From assembly GCA_002633005.1 (NCBI GenBank), contig NMRA01000079.1:981148-1045147 (forward strand): a DNA stretch of 64,000 bases. Reading direction: 5' to 3'. The translations under genes were made by a program, and so were the position numbers. The notes beneath the pieces were generated by a model. The model was not told the origin of the DNA and searched no databases. It saw only the letters and a list, made by a program, of their open reading frames with translations. Source of the stretch: Phoronis australis (lineage: Eukaryota; Animalia; Phoronida). How positions within the stretch are numbered: the first letter of the stretch is position 1; every line of letters starts with the position of its first letter. Of this stretch, positions 5,518 to 59,781 are shown one piece after another.

Positions 5518-5572
5518 ATGGCTGCTCTTATTGTGATTGCATTTGGAGTTTCTGTTTTATGTTACCACTACG
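5518..5572 (+). CDS. Pseudo-reprolysin/CUB gene exon 1: signal peptide
   Basis: Acceptor tttcag at 5502, aaaacATGg context, MAALIVIAFGVSVLCYHY(G), phase-1 donor G|gtaaat. Confidence 0.65.
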
Positions 5573-11500: not shown

Positions 11501-14500
11501 TTGTTCATTACAAGTCTAATCCTTTTTAAGGGAGTACTCAAAGTGCAAAAGGCGAACAGGATCCCTCGAAATCGCGACGAATCCCTATTGCGTTTGTTAT
11601 ATCAGAAAACATGACCAAATGTCTAACCGATAGCAATGTCAAGAAACGACCCTCGCTGGAAAAGCTTATTCAGAAGAAAGTCACAGGCCAGGTCAGTGTA
11701 ATCGTCGGAAATATGTATGTGTCCATGCAAGTAACGAACAATTTTGCAATTTCGTATCACGATATCCACAGTTAGGTGGTCGAATACCAACCAATGCCTT
11801 CAAGTTTCAGCGAATTTGTAAAATGTCGTTTCTTTAGGTAGTTTTTCTGTGTTCAAGCAGATGATTAGGTCATAGTTACATAATAACGTCGGGATCGTCG
11901 CATGACACTTGCAGTATTCCATCACATGTTTCAGTAACAATTTTTTTAAAACTTGTCATGGAAAGAAACCAATATGTTTGCTAACCTTAGAAACAAATTC
12001 GTACGAACAGTCAACCTATGATTCGCTGTCACACTGAACATAATTAAGATTACAGAACTTGCATTTCAAAAGTCATTCCATTCATTACTATTTTAATTAA
12101 TGGTTGCTTCCAAAGCGCTTTCATTGGGAATTGATCGATTGCATTGTGCAGGGTTAGTAAATTTATAAATGAGACGCAAACAAAGTTTAGTTTTTACTAT
12201 ATTCTGCAATCAAAAATACCAACACATAAATGTTCGCTCCCGGATATAGTAGCTACTCTGATGCTCTCAATTCTACAAAGAAAGCAATTCTCGAAATGCG
12301 GGTCCTTGCAAGAGACTATGGAATGTTTTAACGAAAGTTAAAACCCTCCAAATTTATCTGATAATATTTCAGTTCAACAAATTGTGGAGAAAGCCAAAAC
12401 TGGGCGCAGACATCGATATTAAGGTTGAAGTGCCTTTGATCCATTACATGACGAAAAAAGAAGAGGTACAGTGTACATGTATAAATCATTAACAAGGCAT
12501 TTGCGTATAGCATCTGCAAGAATTATTCGACATTGGCGTTTAGGGATGTAGGGACTGGTGGAGTAGGAGCAATGGACTGCCAGACACAATTCAGTCAATC
12601 AGTATGAAACCAACCAATGGAACTGGAGAGAGTACACTTTTATGTCCAATCAGCAAATGGCGAGGACACGCACATCCCTCAAGTATTAAACTTTACCTGT
12701 GTTCAAACAAGTAATGCTGCCTGCACATTATGTATTTCTTACAAAACGCCATCTACCCGTAAGTGTCACAAATAAACGAGGCAGCTAGTCCATGTAAAGA
12801 CTTATACATGTACGTCTAAGTTCTTGAAATGTTTTGTCGAGCGGCATCTGACGCTTGGAATGTTGTGGGCAATCGTCTGATCCCCAAGAAAAACTTTCAC
12901 AGTGACCTGAAGATTTGAAGAATCATTCATATAAATATGTACATAACATGGTTTAAATGCATTTGCCATGCTGCGGATTCATGACCAGTGCTGACACCTA
13001 ACGAAGCACAATAAATTTTACATAGACAGCGCTTTTGTTTACAGCAAGAGTGGATATTCCTGGCTAAACTGCACTCGAAAAGTCCATCTACAAGCGAAAG
13101 TCTACGCGCCTTTTCGTGGTGGTTACATGACCAAGACGTCTGGGTCAAGAGCAAGGCTGTTACAACCGTTCTCATCATCGACTCGTAAGAGTACATTTCA
13201 CGAACAGTAACTCATTGTGGAGACCAAAACTATGCTTCAATGTCACAATAAATAACAATCGAGTCGTCCTTTATCGAACTTCAAGCTACATTCAGAAGGT
13301 CAGCTACTGTAAATCAGCGACATTTACATTTACATTTACATTTACATACATGTATGTCAAAACTTCCTTCAGCAAACACCGTATCCGACGTGCGACTATC
13401 GCTTTGCAGCGAAACCGTGCGTATTGTGCCAACGTTGTCTAGTGTAGTTGAGCGCAATCACGTTCGTTAGAAATCATTTCTTTTAGAAGTTTTCACAAAT
13501 CGTTAACCAATCGTAGCTGTAAAAGCATGAAAAGGTCGGTTAGAGATGTCAGTACAGATTGGCTCAATTTTAACAACGTCATTAAACAATACATGTAAGC
13601 TACTACCGATATTGATGAGAGACAGCGGTAGCTCGCCAGCACTGTTTCTCTTGTTGAATAAGGGTCACTACATGGCGTATACGGTTCTGAGATTCTACCA
13701 CAAAGACAAAATATGAACATTCGACGACAGCGATATCTGTCAGCGTTACAGTCAGAAAATGCATTCCGCTGTAATATTCTCCGTTTCGGTTTTAGGGATT
13801 ATTCCATTGGCGAAGGAGGAAAATTTTATTTCACCATATACACTAAAGGGGGATTGTGCGATCGAAATACCGTAACTGTGATGACCGGAGGTTCCGCGGC
13901 CAAGCCACTACAATTGGGCAAGTTAGCAATGGCGATGGCAAAAGGGTATATTCCTTCGTTTTGATTATGATATCAAAATTAAACTGAATCTCTTCATCCC
14001 ATGATCACAATAAATATTATAATTTGTTTTGTTTCAACACTGATAAGTGAACAAAATGATTCCGATTGCTTCTGTTGTGTTAACTGACGACGATCAAAAG
14101 GTTAGATGAGGGAATTATATTCGCAAGAGAAAATTTGGCTTTGAGGATTACGAGGAATCGGTCACGACATAAAGCTCTTGACGAGACTTGTACATGTACG
14201 ATTATTCACATAGGTTGGGAATTGAGAGACAGGACTGCGTAGGAAATGGCACGTATAACCCATACGCCAAAATGGATTGGTCAGCATGCAGTAAATCAGA
14301 CGCTGCCAGGATATTCAGGTGCGCTATTACTGAAACACAAGTACATGTACAGGTGTACCTTGCTGGATGGAAAGTCAATGTGTTTCGTTCTAAAATATTA
14401 AAGGGTGATGTAGACCATAATCTTAAGTTACTGTAAGTACTTGCTCACGAGATAACCAGGCGTCCAGTCTCAACGTGAGGGTAAACCGCCTTCCACCAAG

Positions 14501-17500
14501 TGTGGGACGTGGGTAACGTATGTACAGTACATGTACAATGTATTCATAGAAGGAAGCTATGCAATGCACCGGTAGACATTGGAAATTGTTTAGTGGTGCA
14601 AACGCTTAACAACACAACATGTCATCTCAACCGCACTAAAAAGAAAATTACAAATCTCCTTCACATGTTTGGCAGCAGGTATGAGGCACATATTAAAATT
14701 TTGCGCCTCATACAACGTTCCCTGCTACCACATACAAACGACGATCTGCTGCGGACTGAGACGGCTAAAGTTCGTACAGCTGTTCGCTGTTCTGTCTCGG
14801 CACTTTCTTTGGCGAGAAATGGCTAATGCATGTATCGTTTGACGTGCCTGAGTATGAGAGTTTAATTGCCCTCTCCAGTGCAATTAAATTTCAGGACTAT
14901 TTGGTTAACCCAATGCACATGGAATCCGTGTTACTGAAAGACTAATATCACATACACCGATCTACTTTCTTTTCAAATCATAACTGTGAAGTGATTTTTT
15001 TCTACTACGGTGAACTGAAAATCGCGTTTCAATTCATAAAGCCTGAATGAATAAGGTAACGCGACAAGTGAGTGTACACAGCCACTCCACCCACCACTGT
15101 TGCCGCGTGAACCAGTTTCAGACACAACACCCCAAGTTTAGTACACTCAGCTTAGAAATTTCCATTTCATTCCAGTAACAAGCGGGCTTTACCCTGCCTA
15201 GAATACATGGAAGGGATTATGCCGCCCGTGATATCACGTCCCGGAACAAGAAACAATGGGTGTAATGTTGACCAGGAGCTCAATAAATCAGGTAATCCAT
15301 AAGAATGTGTGAATTTAAGTTAAGCGTTTTGGTCATTTTTGTTTAATCTGACGTTGTTTTTTCGGACACGGATGAGCTCGGTATACGCCTGATCCAAAAC
15401 CAACGGTGGAGATTGTGCCTCGCGAGAATGTGAAGCAAGACTCTGAAATTTGTTAAAAATAATTTTGTCTGGCGAGAGTATGGACAAAGTGAGATAAGTG
15501 CTCAGATTTAGTGGCAGGGAGTTTTTATACTTTAACGGTGCCAGGGTTATTCGTCCAACAACATAACTCTATGGTTTGATAGGCTGAGGCTGTTCCAATG
15601 CGTTGCGTTCACAGATACTCACAGTACACGTTTCATTTGACATGGTACCAACAACTGAAATATCTGATTTTCCAAATAACACAGTCAAAATGAAATCCTC
15701 TACCCCGCCCCCTACCCGCTAGACGTCGATAACGCCACTAAAACGCCAACCTCTTACATGAATTTTAAGGGTTTAGATCTCCGTTTGTGTTGGCATCTGC
15801 ATTTATTCTACAATATTCTTTGTTCCAGCAAAGCCGTTTCTCTCTATATGACCCGTTGACTCTCCTTCCTTTTCCAGACGTTGCAATCCGTAAGTAAAAT
15901 GTGTACAACTCTTAACAAAGTTTAGTTATTGAGCGAACGGAAGTAGACGAGCGATATGCAAACGAGCAAGGGCTCCGTTCTCAGATGACTTGGCATAAGT
16001 AAAGTGGTTAGCGTGTATTTCCGGTATGTATACCTACGATAACATACATGTAGCAGTGCATGGTACACAACAATCTGTATAGGTAGAACACACTTAATGG
16101 CGATGTCACACCATAATGGGGATGTCAGTAAACCAAAACATTATGAGACAAACTAGTGATATCTGGAAGAGTTTTGAAGACCGAAGAATATCGCTAAGGG
16201 ACTTAGTGTGATAAAGTGCTTTGCTTCTAATGAATATTGATATTTCGCAGTCTTGGATTTTCTTGCACATTACGGCGTTTTCCCGTTGATCTAATATTGT
16301 TCGAGTCTATAGCCCAACAACAAGTTAGGAAGATGACCCATGTAGCCAATGTCTTACACGACTGATTAACTCCATACTGGCATTCGAGGATGGAGGCCCA
16401 ATAATTGCTCTAGTCTCCAATAAGATCGTATCTAGCGTGACTGGGCTTTGTTGTTTTAATACAAGTTAAGCTATAACAAATTTTAACAAAAGCCAAGAGC
16501 ATTTCTGAATTTCTCGTCATATGCGGACCATTTTTAGTTTTTGAATCAACAAAATCGCCCAACTACAACCGAAGTTACGACAATCAATTATTTCCGAACG
16601 TTACACAAATTCGCTCTGGCCGTTTGCCTGTGTTCACACGTGGTCTGTAATAAGCCTCGTAGGTAATTGGCCTGCCTCTTGTCACACCAGACAAAAGACT
16701 GTGCTTGGCAGTTAACAAAGAAGCTAGATGTTATCACACGACCACAAACCTCTGCGCCAGGTAAAGTCACTGAACGGGAGAACGCCGTCATGTTTCGTGA
16801 GATTCTTGTCTCAGTTTAACGCACGCCACATAGGGGTTCTTAGAGCTCCGTACAGCAGGTGGCCTGGATGACAGTTTTCCTTAAATTCTCTAACCGCAGA
16901 AAGAACATTAGTTGCAGCCATCGCATCTGCAATGGATATCGCTGGATAATTTTATCTACTGGGGATGGTATTTACAGTCACAAGAAATACTTTTTTCAGG
17001 AATAGCACCGAAGTACCTTCGCACGTATGTAGGCGACGTGTCAGTATCCACAATCCGCGTAATGACCAATTGTTTTTCTGTTAAGGTTGTTCGAGTCATG
17101 GCGTTGGCGATCGATCAAAATTGCGCCGATTTCCGATTGCGCTGTACATATCGGTGGACCTTGGCAAACGACTGACCGGAGGAGAGCCTGAATTACGACC
17201 TCAACTGAATAGCTATATTCGAAATCAAAATATGGACATGGTCAGTTGTGTAGACATACTCAGGCTGTGATTGGAGTTACTGTCGCCTCCCCCGTGTAAG
17301 CGACAAAAAATAAACAGATACTTCCCCTTCAAAAAATAGTAAGACCCATTCCACGACATCCTATAGATACATGTACGTCAGTAAAAAGGTATTGCATTTT
17401 TAAAAGGACTGCCGTTGGACCAGATCTCAAAACTCAAATCAAAACGTGGTTCCTGAAGACTTGGTGTTATGATGTAGTATGGGCATTCCACAGACGAATG

Positions 17501-20500
17501 GTAACGCGACTTTCAATTGCATTGCCTGGATTTCAAAGTTCGTCTTCAGTTCGAAATCATTTTGTACTATCAAGTGAATCTGTTGGTATGATATGATTTA
17601 TCATTTTGGCTGCAATGACTGTTACATAGCCAGTTAAAGAACAAATACGTTAACAGAGGTGTTGTTGACCATTAGAATTGTATAATCACCGTAACATAGT
17701 CGTGACTACGCTGGTTTAGCGTGCACTGTAGATACGCTCAAAACTCGAATGACAAGCTGAGTTTCGACCGATAAAAAATCGTCTGCTAATGTAGGTTACC
17801 AGTGGTAACTGAGTATAATGCTCAAGTCGAAGGATCCCGACGATACGATACCAGCATTGAAATTAGAGATCGGTGATTTACAAATGAGAAAATGAGGGAT
17901 AAATTTCACTGAGTTAAAATACCGTTTTTATGGAAATTGTGCGTCCTATTTTTCATAGCGTACAGATGTCGGTACAATGCCCTTTATTGATCAAGCCATT
18001 GGTACGCGTGCTCATTTAAGTATTCTATTTTCACGATCGATGACGTCAGCCGTTGAGTGGTGCAGTGGTTAAAGGCGAAGGCAACCTTTTCCATGTCATT
18101 TTGTATTAAAATAAGGTTGGTTGGTTATCCTAGACATATTTTCCACTAAATTACTGCTTTTCGTAATTTTATTAATTACTCGTCCGCTACTCCGGAAGTG
18201 ACGTTTTAGGAGGCAAGCATTTCGCGCCAATTTCTTTTCATATAGTCTGACTGTGAGAGCTGCCGAGTCAGTCGTTGTTCTACTTCGGTTGTGTTAAGTT
18301 CCGTCGTCGTTTGCTTTCATTTACTAGTCAGTCAACATGCCACACTGTTGCTGCGTACCAGGATGTACTAATTATCGGCTCACGCGCGCATTTGNTGTTG
18401 AAAAACAGCACAAAACAAAAGTAGAATAGAACAGATTCGCACGGTAAAGTCAACCCAAAACCAAGTGGCCTAAAACGTCACTTCCGGAGTAGCGGACGAG
18501 TAATTTTTAAAATTACGAAAAGCTGTACTTAAGTGGAAAATATTCTAGGATAACCAACCAACCTTGTTTTAGCTCAAAATGACATGAAAAAGGTTGCCTT
18601 CGCCTTTAAGTCGACGACTCGAAACTCTTGCGGACCGGGTTCGAACCCGGCCTCGATTCCCGCCAAAATGTTATCTCACCAGTGAGATAACTAATTGGAT
18701 TATTACACGTTGTATTGGCCAGAGGAGGACCATATTAATAGTTATTTGAAATTTGTTGCTGACTTGCGATAGGGACGGTCTCGCAACTTGGTGACTGCTA
18801 AGCCTCTTGAATACACACTAAAGTCAACCGTTTTGTAAAGGATCAGTAGCGGACCCAGGATACCAACTTGTTGCGCGTTGGAGGTCCTAAAGTTTTGGGG
18901 GGCGGGGATGTAAACCTTTTGTCCGTATAAGCAGTCGGTGGAGTAAAATAAAGAAAAAAACGGAACACGACGCCCAAGGCCTCCCCCTCGTCCGCTACCG
19001 ATCCTGCTTATTGAACTCAATAATTCCTCACGCTTCACTCTGCTATTGTTTCGTTATGCTTCCGGCAGCCGAGGGTGGGGGCGGTTCTCCTGCCCCCCTA
19101 AATCTGACTATGAGGATAAACCATACATGTACGTCGTCGACGTCCCAGTTGGATTTTCGCTCCTTGGCTTTGTTCGAACGTTTCGCAAATGGGTGTCCGA
19201 CTTCTAATTCCGATTATAAATGTTCTATAACCTCTCGACACCCACACCACGTTACCCCCTCGACACGCAAACCCCACGAAATGCGGCAATAATGTATCTT
19301 TGCGCTTGATACACATTTCATAATCACATTACGTCGATGAGTGACTTTCCTATTAAACCTCGTTACAGACGAATCTGCTCTGGCACAAGTCTTGTGGTTA
19401 GAAACAGGAAGTGGCATAAGAATATAACCTGAAATAGCGGATGGTGACCGTACTTTCGTTGTCATGGAAATGGTTCCACGAGCGGCTATCAATGACCCTT
19501 ATATTCTTAACTTCAGGAGAGATCACGTTGTGAATGCACATAATTTTAAATTTTTATTAATTGTTTTCTGTTGTATACAGATTTACAATATATTCTATAT
19601 AACGTTGACATACTTTTAAGTAACAGTTTGTTTTTCAAATTGTATTTACTCCACCAATCTCCCGATTACATTCAGCACGGAACTACATTTGAAACGTTGG
19701 TAGGTTTTTGATTTGATTTGGCAGTGTTCTTTCTGTTTTTCTATTTCAAACTTGCCACGTCGACTATCTTAACTCGAAAAATACAGGAAAACGTCCTGCA
19801 AGTCAGCTCCAGTTCTATGTTTAGATCGATTCGAGCTTGTATAGACTGGGTCGAGGGGGCCGTGGGTCATGGGTCGAAGGGGTCGTGTGGTGTACGGGTC
19901 GAGGGGGGTGGAGGGGTTTTAGGACAATCCTTCCGGTTACGCGCGCAGATTCTCATGACCCAAAAGGCGCTATGTCCATGACATGTTCAGAACACAAGAA
20001 TATCACAATACATGTATTCTTTATTGAGTTCCAGATCAACGCGATTTGGAAGAATCCACACTTTGGCTTCAGCATTAATATTAAGGCAGAAGTAAAGTTG
20101 ATACATTACATGACGGTCAACGAAGAGGTATGCACTAATGCTCGCTTGATTAGCCTGGTCTACTTACGACTGTAAACAGATGTCTTGGGTTGTACAGTGT
20201 AAATCTTTTTCCATCTAGGGAAGTTCATCATCAGAGAAAATAACTGTTCAATGTGACTAAGACGCTTAGGTAACAACCTTAGCAAACCCTTAGAATAAGG
20301 AATGGTGAAATGATCATCATCAAGGAAAGGTCGTGGCCCCCTCTTACGGATTGTTTGTAACATTTCGCTCAAGATCTGAGCTCAGTCCACAGGGGTACAC
20401 GTACATGCACATGTAGTTTGTTTACACAACTGTTAACTAAGACCCAGCATGAAAACATCTGTATGCCAGGTCACAGGCAGTTGAGTTCTTCCATGAAAGT

Positions 20501-23500
20501 ATTTTAAAGTGTACAGAGAGTGTTTGGCACATCAGTAACGCTAGCTTTTTTATAGTGATGCTTGGTGTTACAATTTTATTAATTCCACAGTTAGGGGTCC
20601 CATAACAAAAAATCCAAGTATTGAACTTAGGAACTCCTTTACTTCTTTATTCGGAAAGTCGAATTTTTGCATACTAACTATGCAGGCGTATCTTTGGCAA
20701 ACGTGGGTCGAATTTGACCAAAAAATATACCGTTGTGGTCGATATAAGACGGCTTGACTGTAGTAAATCAAACCCAAAGCTGCTGCACACCTGTTAAATG
20801 GCCGTCCGCACTAACCTATCCCAACTTACGGACGCTGGACTTCAGACACTGAGCGGAATGAGAACCCTACATGTATTTCATTTAATGCTTTTCTGACCGC
20901 AAATTACCAAAAATGGCATTTGATTGAATGGATTGTATGAAAACAATGTAAATATGAAAGTTGTCGCGTGATTTCAAGTTTCTACGAAATTAGTCCTGCC
21001 GTTGCTTTTAATGGGTACTTCCCCTGTAAGTCGTGACGCCAATGATAATGAATGTTTACTACCCTGAAACAGCTCTTATGAATGAATACATATCAAAATT
21101 ACGGAATGAATCTTGCCTACTTGAGCTTGATTGGAGGTGCTGCATTTACTGTATATTGAAAATATGCACTCATTTCGGTTTGACGGGTCACATGCAGGGT
21201 TTTCTGGATTTCTTCTCCGTATTGGGATTTAGTAAGCAATAACCGGTTTCGATAAAAAAATAATGCCAATATTAAACGACATCTTTGGTTAAATATTACG
21301 CGCATGCGTCAAACAGGATGTGCGCGTAGACCAGTGCAGATTATTCTAAATATAACTTTCGAGAACAAGGTCACTGTTGTCATAATTTCTGTAGTCACGA
21401 GGTCCGGAATGGTCACATAATCCTAGCACATGAAATTTACTTTTGCAATATACCCTACCTAACTGAGAAATAGTTTTGATGGCCCAGGGAATCCGTAAAT
21501 GAGTAGGCTGCTTCAGAATTCTAAGACTTATTTTGCTCTTATGAACATCCATGATTTTGTGTAGACGTTTTTGCGTTTTGCAAAGGCACTGTTTTCAATC
21601 GTAACAACGAGTACAATTTCCGGAAAATGAAATCATTGGTGTTATATCCAAAAAACACAACTTTCGCGACTTACTCGATTTCCAGCAACAAGTGGAAGAC
21701 ATGATCGGAAACCATACTCTAATACGGGCATTCCAGTCTTGGATATTCCAGAGTAAAAGTTGGATACACAGCAAAGCTGTGACAACTGTGTATCTTATTA
21801 ACGAGTAAGCATTTGCACTTTGAATAGTATGAATATGTACTTCCATGTACTTTTACCTTACAGAGATGCTTGCATTGTATGAAAAATCCAAATTTCAGTC
21901 CTATCCCAGCCAAAATCGCTCGAACAAAATCAAGGTCAGAAACTATTACAGTACTTAAAATACACCGAAGATGAATACATGTATGGCAGAGTGCCATCGT
22001 GGTGTGCATTTTGATTTTCGATTCGACCAACGCTTGAACACCTTATACATTGTACAACTCGAGCTCGGATAGTTTTCATAAGTGTCGTGTTTTTGTGTCG
22101 TTTAGAGTTGTAACATTAACACTCCTTTTGATCTTATCAGTTTGCCATAGCTCCGAGTGCATGTTTTTCCTCTACAAAGTGAATATGATAGTACTTTAAT
22201 ACATTAGTTGTAAAATTAACGTTTCAGCACCTGGCTAATCATCCTCAGCAAGAAAAAAATAATGAATCAGATGTTTAAGAAAAAAAGGCGTCATTCCAGC
22301 TACAGAAATATCAAGGCGCCGTTCCAAGAAACTGGCTTAAGTTCGTTTTTGACTTTTAAAGTACAAGATTTGTCTCAACTTGTTAGCTTTGAAACTTCCA
22401 TGTCGACGTCAGCCCTGAGACAAAACTTAAGTCAAACCTGAGATTTTTTTCTTGAAGAGGACTTGAAACACGTTTAAGTATTGTCTTAAAATTGACTGAA
22501 ATTTGGGATTTGGCTCGTCTAATTGAGTTTTCTTGGAACAGTTCTCAGGACTATATGTACTCCAGGAATCAAGCATGCCACATCAAACATGCTACAGTGT
22601 TTCTTACACCACCGGCGACTGATGCCATCGTCTCTTCCTGCCATATGTCAAGGTCAAGAGGTTATTTATCTAAGTTTGCAGCGCCAATTTGTCACCAAGT
22701 CCTTGCATTTTGTAATTGATTCATCAACCATCTTCTTATATCGCTTTATGCACGGTTTTAAGTTCGCAATTCTTTTTCAGTGGCAGTCGTGGTTCGTATC
22801 TCACGGATGGTAATTTGTGCAGGCGAAATACGGTAGCTGTATTAGGACTTTCAACACCTGCGCAGCCTATTCCATTGTTCTCGTTAGCAAGCGCAATGGC
22901 AGCTGGGTAAGCATTTCTAAACATGACAATAGACGCATTTCTTTCTGCCTTACAATCTCCACGCTCACTCATTTTCCCCTCCCATCTCCTGTTCTAAGTT
23001 CTTTCCACTATCTTAGCCCTCCCCATTGGTTTTGCTGTGGCTGATATCTCGCGCGGTGTGTAAATCTGTCCTATATGGGCACTTACAGTTCCAGTCTTGT
23101 CCACAATCTATTAGGCTTGAACAAGAGCTTTAAGTTATCTAGCCGTTGTACAAAGCTGTATACTAGATATACACTGTACAGCTTCGCGCCGATGTGGGTA
23201 AAAAACTGGTAAGATAAAGTCTGACACAAAATTAGAGTCATTAGAAACTACAGTCGTCCTTGTGTAAAACAAATTATCTAACGTTGCTGGAAAAAATAGC
23301 GTGCTACCATTACTTTGCTGCTAAATTTTGGAGCAATCTTTAGCGACACCTATTGTCTACTTTCTTTTTTTGCCGATTGTTCAATCACTGATCTGTTCTT
23401 AGTCCATGAGGTTGAGTACATTTAGATATCACAACAAATTATAGGAACTGGTATCATTTAGTTAAGTTTGTAGAAAAACCGAATTTTAGAAGAAATTATG

Positions 23501-41500: not shown

Positions 41501-44500
41501 ATGTGCACGCAGGAGACATCTGCAACCATCGCGTTGCTTTGGTGGAAGAAGGTCGCATACTAGACAGAGAAGGTGATCCCATATCAGACATGCAGATGGC
41601 GCATGACGTAGGGAGGACGTAAGTAACCTATTCTGCCAAAACAAACATCTAGTTTAACAGCAGATTTGGCTGTGCAGTCTGAGCATAGCATGCCTCAAGA
41701 AATGTCGTCTTAGTGTAAATCCGTCGTTCGTTAAAATTACGGATTGAATTACACGTAGATCGCTTCTTTCAGGAATCGATATCTTGTACCACTAGTCTAA
41801 ACTTGTTCACTTCTCAGATTAAACGTGCTCACCGAGTTCGGAAAGGAATGGCAGATTATTTGAGCATAGGGGAATGCCACGTCATGCAGTTTGAGTATTT
41901 ATTCAATACCTTTCCAAGTTGGAAGTCAAGTATCCAGGTTAAAGGCCTGTGGTCCGAGTTATAGACAAAAAACGTTTAACGCCATTTTAGCCGGGTTTTT
42001 TGGTATGACGTAAAGTTCATATAGAATATTACATGGCGAAGTCGTTATCCCCCGTTATCTAGAGCCCGAGTGGATAATATTGTGGTATAAAAAAGTTATT
42101 AACTTTGAATACGTGCACAACATTTGCAAAAGTCGTTTTTAATGTTACCAACAAATGAGATGTTTACAAAGAATAAAAAGGATAGTCATTAAAATACAAA
42201 AGATATTACAATAACGCAACGCATGCGCAGCCACAGGGGCAATACCGATACAAAATGCAAAGGTGTACTGCCGAAGGCGAAACGCGGGCGTACTGCTCTA
42301 CGAGATTCTGAAAAGGACGAATTAGTCAGCAGAAAAAGCGGCACTACCGACAAACCGTGTACAAAAGCGAGTCGTTCGAAAGGTGTGAAACAATGAGGAC
42401 AAGATTCAATCTTCGAACTCATAAAAATATTGAAAGTCTTTCGATGGACAAGTAAGTGTGCTGTTTGTAAAATGTTCAGTGACTCGTATGTACATATGTA
42501 CGCTTCGAGCGTTCACTGCATGGGTAACTGATCTCAGTCGACATACATCAGACCAGATTTATTCTGAAGTTAATTCAGTCAGCTGTTCAGTGTTTCTCCT
42601 GTGATTTGTTGCCTTTACTTATACCGATTCACACTGGCTGAGACTAATTAGTAATTTACACTTGTGAGTGCCAGGTCCTTTCATACTAACGTCGATCCGG
42701 CGATATTATGGGGATTTGCGGTCAATGTGAACGGTTAACTTCGGTCCGTGACCCAAGTTAACAACGCCAGTTAACTTCGCCGTTAACAGGTGACTTATCA
42801 GCGGAGCGCAGACGCTGCGGTGCAGTATGAACGGTCCTTGAACTTCGGTCCCATCGAAGTTATCGCCAGGAGGCACTGTTATCGTCAACGATTACAGAGC
42901 AGTGTTCTCGCTAATTGGTTGCTCATATTTTGCTCAATTCGAATTAGAACTAGGTTTTTGTGCCAATGATTAGCTCGTCAATATTCCCAAATTATAACAT
43001 AGCGTGCAAGCGATGAATCAGCGCTACCTCGCGATTACTTCGATGACAACAGCGCCAGCCACCGTTTACTTCGATGTCCGTTAACTACCGAAGCCTTTAT
43101 GAACGGTTCAGTTAACTTCGCAGTTTACGCTCAGACCGGAGTTAAGTCATTATGAAAGGGCATTTGTATTAGGATAGCAGTTGCCCTGGGGGAGGGGTGG
43201 GGGGAGTTTTTAGGCCGTGTAAGGGAGGTGTTGCCCACTCTCCCTCACATAGCTTTATTAGAAAGCTCGACTTGTCCCTGTTGGTCGTAGTGAGTACACT
43301 GGGTGGTGAGTTTTGGTTGACATGGCTGTCTACATGTAATTACATGTAGTTCTGCTTTATGTTGAGCACTTACACATGCCCGTGTAAGTGTAGGTTGATA
43401 TCTCTTATCCCATTAAGTTTTAAAAGAAGGAACAAATGTGACAAACTGGAGCTTATTATAGATAGCCAGTTTAAAAAGTTTTTGTGCGTTTCCATCTTAG
43501 ACTTTTCAAGTAAGGAGAATTTTTTTATTTACAACCGGCATGGTCCAACCACATTACGTGAACCCACAACCTCAGAAAATGAGACAATCAAGTCTCACGA
43601 TTGGAGTAAAATTCTGTAAGTTTTCTCATGTCACGGAATTTCTCAATTTTCCAGTTTTGTATCGAATGCAGATTAGGCAATGTGCTCTAATCCTTATTGT
43701 TTGTCAATATTAATATTACTTTATCAGTCTTTTATGTTGCTGTCAGGTTAGAATGATCGTGTCTCAGCTATAAATGTTACCTACTGGTAAATCAAAGTTG
43801 TTTTAAACATTAAGGTATGACATGTTTACTTAAAGTGCATTCTTTAATCTTGGGATTTCTCCTGGTAAAATGAGACAAATTTTAGTATTTAAACCCTTCT
43901 TCGTCACATGCACAATCAGATTGAGTGCTTTAAACGAGCTGCCCATACAAACTTTCTTTAAAGGAGTCCCAGACTGGTTATAGAAGCAGATCGCCTAACG
44001 AAACCTTGATGTTTTGTTCCATTTTAGTGCCTTAATATCTCATGGGGGGATATTTCACATTTTATTCAGCTCACAACTCTTAATCGTAACCAAATGTGTC
44101 ATCGTGGTCGTGTAAAGCATTAAAACTTACCTTGTTTAAAGCAAATTGTATTGCGGGAATCATCCATGACCCCAATATTTCAGGGATTACGTAATTCCGA
44201 CAACTCTTTACCCCACCACTATGCACCAGCAACCTCCCCCCACTCAGCGATTTTTACAAAAAATACATTTACCAAGGCGTTTACATATGAGTTTTCAAAA
44301 TGACCTCCCTGTGGCGGGCTTTTTTACCAAAAAACTGCAGGTTGGACCTAGATTTCTACGTCTAAACAACCAAACAGCTTACCAAACAAATATTCGAGAT
44401 ATTTTTGAAAGATGCGTGCACTTCGAAGATGATTTGTGGTTTATATTTTGGCAACAGAACAATGTACATTAAAATGTATGAAACAGTATTTAGTTTTAGT

Positions 44501-47500
44501 TGTTTATGATAGATTTGTGTAATCCCTTCATCAATCATATCTGCGTTATGTTTTTATCAGTGGTTTGTAAGATTTCCAGTTGAGCTAAGAACAGTTACAA
44601 AGTAACGACTTTGCCAATGAACTGGCTTAGAAATGTATTTTAACTGCAATCGAATTTGAAACTTTGTGTATCCACAGACCTTCTTTTGATTACCCTAAAA
44701 CAATTAATTATCATGCCCATGTTGCAGCATTCCAGGCTTGGCTATCCAAAACTCACAGGCGTTATAAAACAATTATCTGTTTAACCAGTAGCACAGAACT
44801 TTTATTACGCTGTGTTTACTGACACAGGCAAACTGGGATATTGCGTGATCAAGAACAGGCTTCACTGCACTTGCATGTCACTTTCACAAGGCTTATAGCT
44901 TGGGAGTTAGAAACCGATGATCTGCAACCACAAATACCCATGATATACATGTACCACCATCACCATTACTACAAGCCAGTGTTTTGCCTAGTTGCCCCTT
45001 CCAAGCCCACAATGGGACCTAAGTCCACTCGTCTCCCCTAAATTCGCGTTTGTATGGTTTTATCTTGTCGATTCAATGTCACCGCTTCAGATTCACATAT
45101 TCTTGTCTGAGTTTTCAGTATAGATGCCTCAGAACGCATTTTAAACTGAAGGTCTTCTTACAAATGTCACTATTGCCATATTGCAGCGATTCAGAGCTGC
45201 TGTTCACCCTTGTCCTTATCTTCTTTGCATCCTTACAATCTGCCATAAAGTTTGTGTCTACTCTTGTACAGACTCTGTGCTCTTTTGGAAATTAAGGTAG
45301 ATATAAGCCTGCCTACTGTCAATAAACCAATTTTTCATTTGAACCAAGTATCATTAGTATGAAATTGATCTCGAATCGTTCCTTGATAAAAGTAGGTGTG
45401 AATTTCGGGCTAGAAAATTTCTAACAATTTGTTATTATTCGATAAAGTTTCCTTACGTTGAATTGTCACAGCATGTCATTTTATTCACTTGACATGATCT
45501 CAACCATAGTGAACTGCCAGATCTGTTCAAGACCAAAACTGATCTCAATAAGGAATAAGGAAAATGCCGAGACCAATTCTATACTTAAACGTATAGTTAA
45601 AACGAAACGTCAATTTGCTTGGATAGATTAAGGTAGCCACAGTAATTGTTCTGCAAAAATCCAACTCTGTCGTCCCTGAATGTTTGTTTATTGTTGCTTC
45701 CTGATAGACGATGGTAGTATAAACCTTATTTGAGCATGATGAAACAGTTGCGTGGTAGCTATATTCATTCAACGGCTGGTGAGTAGCACTTGGGTTCAAT
45801 TTCCAGTCTTAGAACTCTAGGATCCATGTTAAAAGGTTTTGCTTTGGCCATGAAAAGTTATGATGCGATGAAGATTCATATCAAGAATCAAATGACAATG
45901 TGCATTAGTTCATACATCATCTTTCTAACTTGTAACCTCTCACACTTGTTGATACTAGCTTTCAGTCGGTGGAATGGGGGCGGTAATCATTGGCTGTACC
46001 CAACGGTGGTTTTCTTTGCATCGTTTCTTTGGTTATGGTGCTTCCGTGCTCAATTGTATTGTACTTTTGCACAATCTTTTACAGGCTATAACGGTACTTT
46101 AGTGAGAAATCCAAGAAGTGTGCAGTTTATATATCACCTATTTCACGAAAGCGCCATCTTCCCGCGCCATCTTTAAATACTGATCGAAAACGAGGCACAC
46201 TGATAAAACCTCGTGAGTGATCATCAGCTGGCCATGGTGTACTGTGCAGTGCCTGAACGTACCAATTCCAGTAATATCTTGTCGGTATCCTTCCCAGGGA
46301 TATGCTTAGCCATTCGCCCAGTCACCAATGCTAGTAAAAATGGTGCTGGGTGAGTAGAAGTTGACTTGCCGGTCGCCCGGTGGCGAGCGAATTTCAGAGC
46401 GCAAAAGCACTATATATCGTTTCCCAGATGAATATGAATAATTTTCCTCCTCCTTGTGCTGTTTTTATCATGAATTTAAGGTTCAGTTTGGTCATCGTGT
46501 CGATGCTCCGGCAGTAAAAAACATCGGCGCAGTGCGAACCTACCGATTCAGTACATGTCACCCGTTACGCGATTCGTCAAAAAACACAGTGTGTGGTCGT
46601 GCACAAAGAATTTGTGGACTAGTCCGAAACGAAGAAAAGGGGAGAAAGGTGGAAGACCGGTCCATGTGCTCATAGCAAATAAAATACCATATTTCTTGGA
46701 ACTGATTTCTTATTGTAATGTACAATGTCATTTTAGCCAAAATTATTTTTATAACATTCGTCCTAATAAGCGCCCATGCCCCTATAAGCGTCCCCACTCG
46801 TTTTCAGACTTCGCTAAAATAAGCGCCCAGTCCATGAATGTGTATATATCAGTGCGAAAAATGTCTTACCTCACAGTTCTAAAATTCTACAGTAAATGTA
46901 TTCAATTTATCAATAATATCCGACAGTTCTGAAAAATCATTGTGCGCGTAATTTCTAGTAGACCACGAGCCTCGCCGCTATGTCGGTATTTAGCCGTGGC
47001 TGTACACTTCAAACCATTCCGCAGTGCTTCAAAAAGAACGCAAAAGATTTGCTGATCTTGCGCGGAAAGTGTCACACTACATGGTCTGGCCCTGATCAGA
47101 ACAGACGCAGCGTACTCAGGTCAACGGGATTGGTATTGTATCTTTCCCGTACAGATCTTCTCCCACAACAGGAATCCAGATTGTTTTGTACACGAAAAAT
47201 TATAAAAACCGCGAATCGAAACTTGGCCAAGAAGCGCGCGCTAGGGCCCACATATAACATGTGGGCCTGCTCAATGAGATAAATATACTACATTATACAG
47301 CTCATTGGGCCTGCTACTCTGGCAAATGAACACTGATGACACGCACGCGCTCGCTCACTCGGTGCACACCAGCTGATTCACTTCAATACAAACGTCACGT
47401 GACAACAACATATGTGTTCGTCCAGATTTTTCTCGTTGCGGGGTGCGATCTAGCGCAGATTTTGACTTAATCTGCGGTTAATCCCGACTCCGAGTCCACA

Positions 47501-50500
47501 GGAACTTAAGAATCTTAGGAAAGGCTATTTGGGAGGATTTCAGGTAATTTGAGTCGAAACTATTTTTACTCAAGAATTCAAGTTGTCCTATCGACGATCG
47601 CGAAGCAGCGACGCATCAGTCGGCAAGTTTTCGCCCTGGGATTTCAGCACATTTTTTTTAAAAAGATCGTAATTTAACAACAGAGTTTGATAGCAATGCA
47701 CCACAGTTTTGTAGCTAGTCTGTCATAGGTTACACATACGTCACAGCGCGTAAATTTGATGAATCCTAGCTTCCGATTTCACCCGTTTCGGAGACCAGGT
47801 TTTAACTGCCGTAGGCTACAAAAAGAGTCCCCCTGGGCGCTTATTAGAGCGAATACGGTAGCCCTAATAGATGGTGACATCAGTGCACGAAACGATGATT
47901 TTTATTTAAATTAGCAGCAAGTTTGTGGTGACTGGCGCCAACGGCCGGGTGACCGAACTTCGGGCTTGGCGAGTAGATTTTCTGGCTCCGGCACTCACCC
48001 AGCTCCGGGCGAGCAGAAAAGCCTGGATATATCCCTGACTTCCACACTTTTTCAAAAGAGGGAAAACTATAAGGAATGGCTGAGGAGGGTAAAAGTCTAG
48101 TTGCCATAAGTATTGGTATGTTTTTGGAGATCGATTCAACATCAGACAACTTGATTTTTGGTAACGTTGATAAGTCTTTTGACCACAACAACTTGCAGGA
48201 CGATGCAATGTTTGTCAAGGCGCCGCGTTTTCGAGCAACACGACAGCAGCGCCCCGCGTTCGTGAAAGAGGTGAATACAGCACTGCAACTGGTGTCCATA
48301 ATTAGTATACATGTATGCTTGGGAGAAGATCACGGCGTGCACAAACTTGACACATGAATTCCAGGGTCCAGCCTGTCCATTGCTTGGAGGTCAATGGTCT
48401 TGCAATGGCAACAAATGATAACTGATCTATCAAACGAAACTATCACTGCCTTTGTGAACACTTAACAATTGACACTATCTTTAAAGTTCCTTTTGTACAA
48501 TAGCTTGACCTTGATAAAACCTGTAGTCATCACAACAGGACACAGTAGTATTTTTCATCTTATCAATTTACTGTTCAGTAGGGCCTATACATGTACAAGT
48601 TTAGCATTTTACTTTAGATTATATACGTTTAATAAACCAGCACTGCTTGATGACTGTCTCCTACATGCGACTCCAATACAGGGATACAGGACCTGCTTTG
48701 TAATTGAAGTGTTCATGTAACTTGGTTCAGGTTGAGTCTATCATCTGCTTTTGTCGATCCCGGTGGTAGTTTGAATTGACTACGTAATTAAAATAAATGC
48801 GTCCATGACTTAAGCATATTACGATTTATTACATGTCATGTAGCAACTCTTGTTTGCATTTTCATGTATGTGATGTTGAGAATTACTGCTGTGAAATGCA
48901 TTTGTTGTTGTGCAGGTTAAACTTTGGCACGGAAAATCCATTCTGTTCGTTAATGTGATTGCGTCATTGCTGTTAAAGCTACTATAAACATGCCTTCCAT
49001 CAAATAAACCAACTCTTGATTTTGACTATTTATTGTCTCGGCCCATTCCTTACCCATAAGTGCAAGTGATTCCTGGAATTAGAAAAAAATGGCCTCAGCT
49101 TATGAAGTTGGCTTGAAACAGCGTGTCAATTTTCTAGGTGAATTCTTTCCAAGCCAAGAAACCTATCCTCACGTTCATACACAATGCAAGTCTAAGCAGT
49201 ACATGGGTAACAGTGATACATTATATTCCATAGGATACACATTAATGCAAATTGAAATTTCACTGTTCTAACTGTTTCGGACCAATTATGTTTAGTTCTC
49301 GAGTTAACTTGTCAATACTGACGCTAGAAATCTGATAGCAGTCGACATTCAAGGACGATGGTTTTCGAAGCACACGTTAGGCCCTCTGTCCTGTGATCTG
49401 ATGGATTGTGTTCTTGATAACGTGAGTCGCATACTCAAACTCCGAAAAGGGTACAAAAGATAAAAGCAAGAACTTTTACCAACCTCCCACTGTCCCTAGC
49501 CTTTTATTTACAAAATCGAGACCATACCACCGATAATACAAAGTCAACGAGTATGTTTTATTGGTTTCTGTGCAGTATCACGGTATTTTTAAAACGGATC
49601 ATGTGAATTGAATGTTCGGTAACACTAGTATTCGCTGAAATGTGGCCGAAATCACATGGTCTAATTTAAAATGCTCTGCAATATCTCACGTAATCTTGTT
49701 AAGTCTTGTTCTTATCGAGGTCCTAGCATTACTGAACTCTACCCAAGTTAGGGTTATGTAACGCTAGGATCTGCGGAAGGTCCCACGAGGTTGTTTGATA
49801 TAGTGCCGCGTGTTTTTAATGAGAACATGCTCGTAAAATTGATATTTCTAGTCGCGAGTCAGCTACATGTAGTGAGCTCTACCCTTTTTTAAATACAGAT
49901 CGGTACTGCAATATAATTGAAGGTTTGAAACAAAAGCATTGCCAAAGCACCTACTGTATAAACCTGCGTGCAATCCAAAAAGCGGACTTTAGATTAAAAC
50001 GGTCAAACCTTGATGGCATTTGTGCCCGCATAATTACCGCTTTGTTAAACTAACATGTAGTCTGGCTTCCGTCAAGTATTACGATTCCTACTGTATGTTC
50101 TTTACAAGGCGTGAAATGATCTCTTTCCTAGGGGATATTTTGGTATCAATTTGAGTGGCCTTTGATAAATCAAAATATTCTTGTTTGGTAACAGAACTGA
50201 GACCTGCCTTATTGAATATAAACNTAGCATTACTGAACTCTACCCAAGGTAGGGTTATGTAACGCTAGGATCTGCGGAAGGTCCCACGAGGTTGTTTGAT
50301 ATAGTGCCGCGTGTTTTTAATGAGAACATGATCGTAAAATTGATATTTCTAGTCGCGAGTCAGCTACATGTAGTGAGCTCTACCCTTTTTTAAATACAGA
50401 TCGGTACTGCAATATAATTGAAGGTTTGAAACAAAAGCATTGCCAAAGCACCTACATGTACTGTATAAACCTGCGTGCAATCCAAAAAGCGGACTTTAGA

Positions 50501-53500
50501 TTAAAACGGTCAAACCTTGATGGCATTTGTGCCCGCATAATTACCGCTTTGTTAAACTAACATGTAGTCTGGCTTCCGTCAAGTATTACGATTCCTACTG
50601 TATGTTCTTTACAAGGCGTGAAATGATCTCTTTCCTAGGGGATATTTTGGTATCAATTTGAGTGGCCTTTGATAAATCAAAATATTCTTGTTTGGTAACA
50701 GAACTGAGACCTGCCTTATTGAATATAAACTCTGGGAATGAATTACATACTTGGAGTGGTTCGGTCAGGATTTTTTTATGTTCTTTTTCAGTTTAGGTCT
50801 GCCAGGAAACCAGCTATCATGTTCCGAGGGCATTATGGAATCCCGGGAGACGCATAAAGGTTGGTCCGCTTGTAGCAAGCAGAAATTAAAGAAGATACTA
50901 AGGTACTGAAATTAAACCTTCTACTAACCAAGGCTTTACATGTTACTTAAACGTTAAAGTATATTTGAGAACAGACGACTTGGTTTCTTTTGCTGACATC
51001 GCTTTTTGCATTCATGAACATAATTTAAAGTGATGTCATTACCGACAACATCGTGTGCTACGCATGCGCAACCCAAGAACGGAAGCCTCAAGAGAAAAAC
51101 CTGGTGACATGTACCATCAAGAGATGATTGACTACACGAATCGAATAACTACATGTATTCAGATGAACGGAGGGCGGTAATAGTTCCCGTAGTCACAGTA
51201 GTTTTCTATATAGGCCTACACTGGACAATTAAACGTACGAAATCCACGCATAAAACCGCAATTACAGATCACTCTTTTTAGAATCCTTTCTAATCCTGAC
51301 CAAATCTCGACAAAATCTCCTCAGGTTTTCTATGTTCATTTTGTCGAAGTTGTTACAATTCATTTCGCAAGTCCATTGTATCAAGTGACATTTAATGCCC
51401 AAGCAAACTAGTAACGTAGATCAATTACACTGTGAACACTATTTTATTGCGACTAAAGGTCGAACAAACTTCTTAAGTCGGAGTTCTGTCGAATTTTGCA
51501 TATACTATTTTGAAAAATACTTTAGACTGGGCTAGCCCAGCTTTCAGTTACATGAACACAACATCGCCTAACCCCACCTATCATTCACATGTTGATCATT
51601 TCGGTGTGACCGCAATGAAATTTATCTGGCAATGGAAACGTGTGACTTACAAAACAACACCAATGTGCAAGCTGCCGCATTGACTGAATCTTCGGGATTT
51701 TGACTGGATGCCTTAAGCATTGTTGGTTGTTATCAACATTTGTTGGCATCCATGCTTGATTACCCCTAACAACAGAACAATCATTTATCGTTCAAACTTG
51801 CATATTTATAAGAAAACGCACAGACGTGGATAACATCTGGTGGACAGACGTCCTATTTGACGCCTTACGACAAATTAGGGTAACATTTTAAGAAAAGGGA
51901 CACATTAAGATGGCCGATATCCTGGCAGATAACTTGCGACAGCCTTTCGCCAATAGAGCCTAATCAAAAATCATTTAATTGGAATGTATACATTTAGGTA
52001 TATCATTGCCAGAGTAAATTGGTGTGTTTTGTATCCCAACACAATTAAGAAATAGCTACCGTGATTACACTTTCCGTCAATGGCGGAATCTGGCAAAGCT
52101 AGTGCCTCGTCTTCATTTTTCGCAAAGTAACCTGTTCTACGAAAAACAGCCTTGCTCTGCCATCTGATTCGTTGGCAGACGCTTAAAAGGAAGAACTGAC
52201 TACGGTTTGTTTCATCATGCGTGTGGTAAAATAATACTCCTTGTGATCGTAGGGCACGGAAGCATTGTCAAAGGGTGTGTACTTTTGACAATCATCCTCC
52301 ACTAAATTTGTTCACAAGATCACTTTACTCCATTCCCAGCGACCCGTGGATATACTCTTGCTTGGAATATCAAGAAGGTTCCATGCCAGTGCCGAAGGCT
52401 TCTCTTGGCCTTATTTCAGCGGAGGACTTTGAGGCAATCAAACAAAACTGTAATGATGACATGGTTGCTACTCACTGGGTATACAAAGGCAAGTTCTCCA
52501 GGACAATTAGCTACACACTTCTCGCCAGACGCTTCTCGCCATGGGTAAGTCGGCTAGGGACACAGAGCATTGTTTGAGAATACATATATTTCGTGTTCAC
52601 TAGTCAAAAATGCCCTTGTACCTCTTGGCCCCATTCATGTTTCAGTGTTAAAGAGTTCCAAGTATTAATTAAAGGTGTATTTGCATGAACCTAACTATGC
52701 TAATAAATAGCAGGAACTAAACGTCAATCTATTTTAACTTCATATGCACTAAACGAGGTGCAGATGTATTCGTAGACACAATGTAAATGTAAAAACAAAA
52801 AATAGGAAATAGGTGGCCTTTGCACGAATGGCGTATCTTAGGCGCTCGCATAGCCAAGGTCATGCACTGTTATTCCTCACAACCACGTCACGATAATTAC
52901 TGGATTCGGTTGAGTGATTTACGGAGGATCATTTTCGACCCAAAATTCGTCCAAAAAAACATTTGGCAGTTTTCAACCTACTTCATATTCACATAATCGC
53001 TTGTTTCTAACTAATGTGACCAACTATGAAACAATTACAGCAATAAGGAATTAGCGTGCATGTTCCACTTTAAATTCTAACCGTGTCAGTCTGTCAAACT
53101 CATTGCATTATTACGTGCAGAGCTACCTAAGATAGAACTGAGGGACCCACATGGATTATATGTGTGCTTGTATGCTACATCTAATTTCCCAACATCAACC
53201 TAAATCAACGCTTCCACTTACCAAGCTATCGCGTAGTCTAGTACACGTTAATCTTTAAGACCGGCCTCTTTCGTCAGTGGATAAGGGAATGTTCATGCAC
53301 AGTGAGGGTATTTGACATCGCCACTGCCCGGGTGAGATTGTGGATTATGAAAACTAAATATGTCTTTGGAAATCGAACTCGGTTTTTCATCGGCAACAGA
53401 CGAATTTAGAATGGTTTGCCAAAATCTTAGCTGCCTGAGTAGCACAATAACGGGTTGAATTGTATACATCACTGCACAATAGTGCTTAACTGGGTGGTCT

Positions 53501-59564: not shown

Positions 59565-59781
59565 AGGCGAAGGCAACCTTTTTCCATCTCATTTTGAGCT
59601 AAAATAAGGTTGGTTGGTTATCCTAGACATATTTTCCACTTAATTACAGCTTTTCGTAATTTTATTAATTACTCGTCTGCTACTCCGGAAATGACGTTTT
59701 AGGAGGCAAGCGTTTCCCGCCACTTGGTTTTGCGTTGACTTTACCGTGCGAATCTGTTCTATTCTACTTTTGTTTTGTGCT
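59565..59781 (-). mobile_element. Second copy (one end) of the Kolobok-type element, truncated by the N at 59782
   Basis: ttaa|AGGCGAAGGCAACC...; reverse complement of ~18405-18605. Confidence 0.85.

Follow-up and report, generated by a model that had tools for sequence, protein, structure and literature searches.

We analyzed a 64,000-nucleotide window of the Phoronis australis genome (contig NMRA01000079.1, forward strand), a stretch of eukaryotic DNA with ~40% G+C and four single Ns. It contains, on the + strand, one expressed gene made of three tandem modules, here called D1, D2, and D3. On balance, these modules probably come from a catalytic plus disintegrin-like unit of the ADAMTS type (M12B) that no longer has the three-histidine zinc site or the catalytic glutamate, so that the product would be nonproteolytic. 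In the history that we propose, the modules would descend from a reprolysin/ADAMTS-like protease domain, the ligands would have been lost before D1 and D2 were duplicated, and selection would then have maintained the dead modules over a long period. Secretion of the protein is likely, and its action, if it has any, would be binding through its CUB and disintegrin-like parts and not catalysis.

Putative degenerate zinc sites

The initial annotation had proposed that three metalloprotease domains between 13796 and 50902 have lost the zinc site to different extents. The degenerate-site strings that it aligned, AMAMAKG|LGIERQ in D1, ASAMAAG|LSLTGG in D2, and AHDIGRT|LGLPGN in D3, are present at the places it gave on the + strand in the translations of open reading frames (ORFs). 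Each of them is split by a phase-2 GT..AG intron, which cuts after the second codon base, and in the RNA-supported spliced frame the joined products are exactly AMAMAKGLGIERQ (D1), ASAMAAGLSLTGG (D2), and AHDIGRTLGLPGN (D3). In the stop-to-stop list of + strand ORFs, the two halves of the D1 site lie in 13662-13961 (...KLAMAMAKG) and 14182-14433 (LGIERQDC..MDWSACS), the first half of the D2 site in 22716-22907 (...SLASAMAAG), and those of D3 in 33448-33657 (...QMAHDIGRT, with a second copy, ...QMAHDVGRT, at 41440-41619) and 50742-50906 (LGLPGNQLSCSEGIMES..GWSACS).

The exons that carry the sites were defined by RNA. In D1, exon 4 (13796-13945, ending ...KLAMAMAK+G; joints 13184>13796 and 13944>14213) is spliced to exon 5 (14214-14318, LGIERQDC...MDWSACS, with no His and no I-M) in 39 junction reads. 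In D2, 35 junction reads connect exon 4 (22781-22906, ending ...SLASAMAA+G; joints 21804>22781 and 22905>23881) with exon 5 (23882-23983, LSLTGGGC...GMKWTYCA). For D3 there are 47 junction reads, which lead to exon 5 (50792-50902, LGLPGNQLSCSEGIMES...GWSACS) from exon 4 at 33498-33656 (ending ...QMAHDIGR+T; 11+3 reads from 33656) or from its second assembly copy at 41460-41618 (AHDVGR; 21+12 reads from 41618). Both limits of the annotated region coincide with exon borders, as 13796 is the RNA-supported acceptor of D1 exon 4 and 50902 is the predicted donor of D3 exon 5 (from GT, paralogy, and phase; RNA covered up to 50999), an exon whose acceptor is RNA-supported.

The motif that defines metzincins is HEXXHXXGXXH(D) (PMC1867822) or, as written in another source, HEXGHXXXXXHD (PMC549037). 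D1, D2, and D3 have 0, 0, and 1 of the three histidines, respectively, and none of them has the glutamate. In D3, the first His and the Gly are retained at the aligned places, as is an I-M pair (GIMES), with Asp for Glu, Arg for the second His, Gly for the third His, and Asn for the Asp that follows it. GIMES stands at the distance expected for the Met-turn, as judged by eye and by hhalign and Smith-Waterman alignment to bacterial reprolysins, and a conserved M downstream of the zinc motif is also present in the ADAMTS consensus line (PMC549037 Additional file 1). D1 and D2 lack His, Glu, and I-M alike at the corresponding positions. The structural elements reported to persist do so: three cysteines, those of G..C and W..C and the one that follows the motif, are common to all modules, and WSxCS-like motifs are found as WSACS in D1 and D3 and as WTYCA in D2. 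As the zinc ligands and the catalytic Glu are absent as a set in all three modules, the product would be unable to cleave other proteins. Reading the 13-residue strings as degenerate zinc sites presupposes that the modules are metzincin-derived, an origin to which the comparisons described below point weakly.

Transcript and reading frame

Reads from three RNA sequencing runs with the same species label (X1, X2, and X3) were mapped to 11300-31299 and 31000-50999. In X1 and X2, the exons have reads from one strand only, with the first mate on the - strand, and a fifth of the run gives a depth of ~24 reads per exon base. Among the joints listed, 20 GT..AG joints were found in X1 and X2, with the first mate on the - strand throughout, and 21 exons were defined after shifting the joints within their ambiguity to GT..AG. 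These joints, from two of the three runs, link all three modules in one + strand spliced transcript. Its order is D1 (11.5-15.3 kb), with a catalytic-like part and a disintegrin-like fragment, then a 12-nucleotide (nt) microexon, then D2 (17.1-29.5 kb), with catalytic-like, disintegrin-like, and CUB parts, and finally D3 (30.3-58 kb), with the same layout as D2; the modules are three colinear sets of paralogous exons.

The first exon of D1 (11531-11691) codes for KSRR followed by the strand-like IPIAFVIS; its donor is RNA-supported (11688>12370, cut +3, 23+14 reads), and its acceptor is predicted (AG at 11529-30, phase 1). It is followed by exon 2 (12373-12465, with RNA joints on both sides), which is paralogous to 20035-20127 and 32082-32174, by exon 3 (13045-13184, ..AFSWW..SKAVTTVLIID, defined by RNA joints and paralogy), and, after the two site exons, by the disintegrin-like fragment (15176-15291, ALPCLEY..RPGT..GC; joint 14315>15173), which was aligned to exons of D2 and D3. 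The microexon was first seen as extra letters in the junction reads of 15291>17086 (10 reads, 7+3); these 12 letters (four codons) have a single occurrence in the window, at 15878-15889, where AG and GT flank them.

RNA joints support all the exons of D2: exon 1 (17086-17240; KLRR and then FPIALYIS), exon 2 (20035-20127), exon 3 (21686-21804), the two site exons, the disintegrin-like exons 1 (27407-27614) and 2 (27810-27932; NICRWTPC...GYSCGLNK, paralogous to 53868-53987), the exon with the first half of the CUB domain (28567-28743), and the one with its second half and a linker (29200-29533). From this last exon, 73 reads (40+33) lead to D3 exon 1 through the joint 29531>30291. D3 continues with exon 1 (30293-30438; KRRLR and then LAIFIT), exon 2 (32082-32174), exon 3 (32597-32733; joint 32732>33497), and the two site exons. 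Three separate tandem genes were also considered and rejected, because the joints 15291>microexon>17086 and 29531>30291 connect the modules into one transcript.

The RNA-supported exons amount to 955 codons without a stop in the reference frame. Four further D3 exons were predicted from paralogy, AG/GT borders, and phase: disintegrin-like exon 1 (52340-52544; 38% identity over 81 aa to its D2 counterpart, E 8e-13) and exon 2 (53868-53987), and the CUB first half (56527-56703; 46% identity to the D2 exon) and second half (57663-58088). Together they give 1261 open codons, with GT..AG borders in 24/24 introns.

The 5' end may be a phase-1 acceptor at 11531, as in D2 and D3, or an unspliced first exon, to which the extra read depth at 11300-11530 would correspond. 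Two 55-nt candidate first exons (5518-5572 and 11051-11105) have signal-peptide-like N-termini (MAALIVIAFGVSVLC.. and MPVSTLFCVRILIASLLF) and end in phase 1 at GT, fitting the acceptor at 11531. The 3' end is either the stop TAG at 58086-58088 or a GTGAG donor after 57972. If the last exon is read through to the stop (57973-58088), the product has a hydrophobic tail, ..SNGCMKPVISIDTIVSALHMLVMGMRGLL, which could be a membrane or glycosylphosphatidylinositol-type anchor signal. A profile scan of all ORFs of at least 10 aa on both strands found no further modules up- or downstream in the window at E<0.05, and on the minus strand the 150 longest of 400 ORFs gave only sub-threshold THAP and MSSP matches in Pfam.

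Paralogy of the modules and proposed order of events

When aligned with one another, the three modules are colinear and have identical exon order and intron phases. Among the ORFs of the window, blastp matched D1 and D2 at four of the five catalytic-like exon positions (E 4e-13 to 5e-5; 5e-7 for exon 1), one of which also matches D3 (E 1e-7), and it matched D2 and D3 at four downstream exon positions (E 2e-15 to 2e-7). The exon with the second half of the site gave no paralogy match at E<=1e-3 and was placed by RNA joints and phase. Identity in the catalytic-like part is 41% between D1 and D2, 23% between D1 and D3, and 21% between D2 and D3, while the disintegrin-like and CUB parts of D2 and D3 are 38% identical.

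A later duplication giving rise to D1 and D2, which had been suggested from the sequence, agrees with these values, as the two modules are mutually closest and have the complete ligand loss in common. Since both share this loss, the simplest order is loss first and D1/D2 duplication afterwards. A rough Nei-Gojobori estimate between them gave 0.62 nonsynonymous (dN) and 1.41 synonymous (dS) substitutions per site, a ratio of ~0.44 near saturation. With both frames open at such a divergence, it appears that purifying selection acted on the dead modules over a long period.

Likely assembly duplications in the D3 region

The stretch 30091-38214 (8.1 kb) recurs at 38216-44553 (6.3 kb) with ~94% identity (blastn). 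The copies meet at a single N (38215), their last 101 bases are identical (blastn), and D3 exons 1 to 4 are doubled, the second copies of exons 1, 2, and 3 being at 38418-38563, 40250-40342 (differing at 0/93 bases), and 40771-40907. In the RNA, exon 4 is one mosaic sequence, which agrees with copy 1 at 3/6 differing places and with copy 2 at the remaining three. Joints switch freely between the copies (38561>32080 and 38561>40248 from exon 1, 32172>40769 and 40340>40769 from exon 2, and 40906>33497 from exon 3), and exon 4 of either copy joins exon 5; no joint from exon 4 of copy 1 into exon 1 of copy 2 was found among those listed. Differences between the copies affect 11/535 bases in exons versus ~131/3182 outside them, and the coding ones are six nonsynonymous and five synonymous.

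We consider 38216-44553 a likely false haplotype duplication, with two haplotypes placed in tandem at a contig join. There would then be only one D3, with an intron of ~9 kb between exons 4 and 5. A real tandem duplication, which would add a fourth catalytic-like unit, is less likely, given the N at which the copies meet, the single mosaic exon 4, and the direct joining of either exon 4 to exon 5.

Other features were noticed along the window. Upstream of D3 exon 5, 49736-50223 and 50237-50736 form a ~0.5-kb tandem repeat (92-100% identity in translated pieces) that flanks the N at 50224 and looks like a second false duplication at a join. Reads on either side of the N at 18395 (18389-18396) terminate in loose letters, more than 100 of them per run, as if sequence were missing at this place; the repeat around it (17970-18636) has high depth on both strands and a relative at 59601-59778, beside the N at 59782. 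Within a D3 intron, 31499-31756 (- strand) contains a THAP-domain remnant (23.0 bits, cut-off 23.9), probably a transposon relic. A 40-nt patch at 45188-45227 has 60-90 reads per run whose letters continue on both sides into sequence not contained in the window; this piece probably also occurs in a transcript from another place. Finally, the intronic stretches 33668-36335, 25974-27307, 23973-24639, and 46341-48341 have reads on both strands, with depth up to 60 and many loose ends, and look like expressed repeats or transposons; the second copy of the duplicated stretch lacks part of them.

Present-day constraint and the pseudogene alternative

A serious rival, even if we consider it rather unlikely, is that this is a transcribed gene becoming a pseudogene, in which the array, once maintained, is now dispensable, the open frame of the reference represents one allele of a polymorphic null, and the product has no function at present. 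One point in its favor is a T>A variant at 27577, in D2 disintegrin-like exon 1, which in the only open frame changes Leu57 of the exon (TTG) to a stop (TAG). It was found in 18/41 reads of X1 (44%) and 29/33 reads of X2 (88%), in reads otherwise identical to the window, and a product truncated there would lack the D2 CUB and all of D3. The stop variant suggests that the gene is only weakly needed.

Several other observations weigh in the same direction, against a gene whose product is maintained at present. The RNA differs from the assembly by eight nonsynonymous changes and one stop versus three synonymous ones among the variants listed, and, adding the differences between the two assembly copies described above, the best-supported coding variants comprise 13 nonsynonymous, including the stop, versus 7 synonymous. 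An alternative D3 acceptor at 50797 (CAG TTTAG), 5 nt downstream of 50792, is used in 7/54 (~13%) of the junction reads from exon 4 to exon 5 and shifts the frame. The start codon and signal peptide are candidates only, module 1 is without a CUB and half of the disintegrin-like part, searches of protein libraries with exons of the window yielded no homologue, and run X3 showed no expression of the gene.

Decay is opposed by the 1261 open codons and 24/24 GT..AG introns of the reference, by the D1-D2 ratio of ~0.44 at a dS of ~1.4 with both copies open, by the lower number of differences in exons than elsewhere between the haplotype-like copies, and by the clear expression in two runs. The 13:7 ratio itself is not significantly different from neutrality or from moderate constraint. 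The initial annotation had held that the fold is retained for binding and had named a dN/dS near 1 across all exons, as in a decaying pseudogene, as what would speak against this. Signs of relaxed constraint and decay are seen in part: the common nonsense allele and the mostly nonsynonymous variants go against retention today, and the older constraint is visible between D1 and D2. Present-day constraint is weak at best, given the stop allele, the mostly nonsynonymous changes among the variants listed, and the frame-shifting acceptor.

Origin of the modules

Another alternative to an array of dead ADAMTS-type modules, a good deal less probable still, is that the modules are not derived from metzincins, being a lineage-specific Cys-containing repeat whose 13-residue likeness to AHExGHxLGxxHD is a product of chance or of pattern-matching. 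Against this, D3 resembles bacterial proteins of the reprolysin type. The comparison set consisted of bacterial proteins carrying HELGHNLGxxHD, of which 31/34 scanned belong to Reprolysin-like Pfam families, two of them to PF01421 proper. The Smith-Waterman score of D3 with a protein called Reprolysin by Pfam (L051; PF01421, E 1e-14) was 63, reached by 2/3000 shuffles; with two more proteins of the set the scores were 51 (L057; 8/3000) and 41 (P0003; 77/3000). The match unites three signature elements in the correct order and spacing, the MAH[DE].G..LG helix, C..G..IM, and [WF]S.CS. A small profile of five bacterial PF01421-type sequences gave D3 7.4 bits, a value reached by 0/500 shuffles. 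In hhalign, the top local match placed DVQMAHDIGRTLGLPGN of D3 on the target HELGHNLGxxHD, colinear over 175-176 columns that include ..C..G..IM.. and WSxCS/FSxCS.

The comparison with ADAMTS was made by eye on a published alignment, counting the positions kept of its consensus lines at >=80% (PMC549037 Additional file 1, part 3). In the zinc-motif block, D3 keeps 7/16 positions, and D1 and D2 keep 5/16 each; in the next block (M, WS, CS, L, and CL), D3 keeps 8/9, D1 6/9, and D2 4/9. Under the alignment block of the zinc motif, the supplement lists introns 22-24. The elements CL / PG / C.W..C / G..CG..K.C....C come in the same succession in the later exons as in this alignment, and each module is preceded by a basic, R-rich motif at the place of the ADAMTS furin site (PMC549037).

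A number of searches did not recover this relationship and count against a metzincin origin. Pfam was scanned with 416 + strand ORFs of at least 38 aa and with 25 exact exons at E up to 10, these being single exons of 31-69 aa, and a Reprolysin or ADAMTS family (PF01421, PF13574/82/83/88) was matched by 0/416 of the ORFs and 0/25 of the exons. Sequence searches against solved structures with two single exons and five exon profiles gave 17 weak matches, none of them to a metzincin. A profile of the three disintegrin-like exons had 0 matches among 1.84 billion representative proteins, canonical ADAMTS included, and word searches of protein libraries with the D2 disintegrin-like exon (8 candidates) and with the alignment of the CUB first half (91 candidates) gave no scored candidate and no relative. 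D1 and D2 were at the null against the bacterial reprolysin set, both in Smith-Waterman alignments and with the small profile. With its 13-residue motif removed, D3 retained flanks that were marginal for one of three targets (56/3000 shuffles) and not significant for the others, and a wider bacterial profile did not separate it from shuffles (64/500 reach its score). Neither hhalign comparison was significant: the three-module alignment scored 17.5 against 24 bacterial sequences (P 0.086, 2/60 column shuffles, reversed query 15.9) and 20.5 against the five PF01421-type sequences (P 0.037, probability 1.4%). An ESM Atlas query with D3 exon 4 returned no usable match. A separate library search for eukaryotic ADAM and ADAMTS proteins, made with a bacterial Reprolysin domain, returned four bacterial proteins only.

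Taken together, an M12B/ADAMTS-type origin of the modules appears likely on sequence grounds. D1 and D2 are tied to M12B through their paralogy to D3 alone. The designation of the modules as metalloprotease domains is backed by the resemblance of module 3 to bacterial Pfam-Reprolysin proteins and left without a metzincin match by the exon-level family and structure-sequence searches. Of the initial proposal, the residue losses are confirmed in full, and its interpretation has partial support: three dead modules in one expressed protein and a later duplication giving D1 and D2 hold, and the metzincin fold and the binding role are inferences.

Hardly any weight can be given to the idea that module 3 still binds metal or cleaves with an atypical set of ligands (its remaining His, the Asp that replaces Glu, and a His close by in ..RETHKG..). 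The module does retain the first His, the Gly, the I-M, and the Cys pattern around them, with an acidic residue where Glu would stand, but two of its three zinc histidines are Arg and Gly, the Asp after the third is Asn, and the metzincin motif is defined by all three (PMC1867822, PMC549037).

Disintegrin-like and CUB parts

CUB was the only Pfam family found on the 416 ORFs and the 25 exact exons. Its profile (PF00431, 110 positions) is covered in order by two exons in each of two modules: positions 1-40 (22.0 bits) and 56-110 (22.1 bits) in module 2, and positions 1-39 (21.1 bits, cut-off 21.4) and 55-110 (25.5 bits) in module 3. The two CUB halves of module 2 are joined by RNA (28741>29198, 49 reads). 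In D1, the profile scan found neither a second disintegrin-like exon nor a CUB.

The ADAMTS disintegrin-like consensus is CL..P, PG, QC, C..LWC, and GT.CG....C..G.C (PMC549037 Additional file 1). By eye, the disintegrin-like exons of D2 and D3 keep CL, PG, C, C.W..C, and G..CG..K.C....C in the ADAMTS order, and their exon profiles matched no ADAMTS among solved structures or among the 1.84 billion proteins. ADAMTS proteins have a central thrombospondin type 1 (TSP1) repeat after the disintegrin-like domain (PMC549037). Pfam TSP_1 had no match on any + strand ORF of at least 38 aa in the window, and in the RNA the disintegrin-like exon is spliced straight to the CUB exon (27930>28565, 68 reads). 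Cys-rich and spacer regions likewise had no Pfam match on the + strand ORFs of the window, and the RNA-supported exon chain of module 2 leaves no room for them; no prodomain exon was found. Because of the missing TSP1 repeat, the ADAMTS name needs qualifying: judged from its sequence, the protein is ADAMTS-derived and is not an ADAMTS in the strict sense.

The basic motifs KSRR (11569-11580), KLRR (17121-17132), and KRRLR (30316-30330) are found directly before the first strand-like stretch of D1, D2, and D3, respectively. ADAMTS proteins lose their prodomain by cleavage at a furin site, RX(K/R)R, which directly precedes the catalytic domain (PMC549037). The motifs could be relics or real cleavage sites between the modules. 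In the latter case, one could imagine a pseudo-protease polyprotein, one chain cut at these furin-type sites into CUB-bearing binding or decoy units, with the null allele kept by balancing or fluctuating dosage selection, a scenario that we regard as far-fetched.

Comparison with known systems

The closest known systems are the non-catalytic ADAMs and, for domain content, ADAMTS13. ADAM2, ADAM11, and ADAM22 are examples of the former. As proposed for this gene, non-catalytic ADAMs have an M12B-type protease domain without the conserved zinc motif, in a multidomain extracellular protein that acts without proteolysis. These ADAMs, to which ADAM23 and ADAM29 also belong (PMC4133867), have one dead domain, a true disintegrin domain, an EGF domain, and a transmembrane tail, whereas here a single chain carries three dead modules in a row, together with CUB domains and disintegrin-like parts of the ADAMTS style, and has no established transmembrane segment.

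As in ADAMTS, a basic site, a catalytic-like domain, WSxCS, CL.., and the disintegrin-like Cys pattern follow one another in order, and the presence of CUB in the same protein recalls ADAMTS13 in particular, the only ADAMTS with two CUB domains (PMC4133867). The differences are the missing zinc motif, the TSP1, Cys-rich, spacer, and prodomain regions that were not detected, the position of the CUB directly after the disintegrin-like part, and the triplication of the unit. ADAMTS-like proteins and papilin are also nonenzymatic ADAMTS relatives, with a proposed role in cell-matrix interactions (PMC1867822, PMC549037). ADAMTS-like proteins have lost the protease and disintegrin-like domains and kept the TSP1 repeats and spacer, and this gene shows the opposite, with degenerate protease and disintegrin-like parts kept and TSP1 repeats and spacer absent. 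Inactive PII snake-venom metalloproteinase homologues have substitutions in the zinc-binding motif (PMC5086652) and, as would hold for this gene, are reprolysin-family members expressed in spite of them; they are single-domain proteins with limited substitutions, whereas this gene has lost the motif altogether in D1 and D2 and by half in D3.

What sets this gene apart from these systems is its dead unit in triplicate, combined with CUB domains and lacking TSP1 repeats. In the excerpts of the literature searched, no ADAMTS-type catalytic domain without a zinc site, nor several of them in tandem in one chain, came up. For annotators, the likely false 6- to 8-kb duplication is relevant, as it doubles four exons. 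Dead protease domains kept as binding modules are already known for ADAMs. If the fold is confirmed, this gene would show the reuse of a protease scaffold after the loss of catalysis, and also a sequence of events: ligand loss, duplication, frames kept open over a long divergence (dS above 1), and now a frequent stop allele segregating. The locus lends itself to the question of when selection still acts on a pseudoenzyme.

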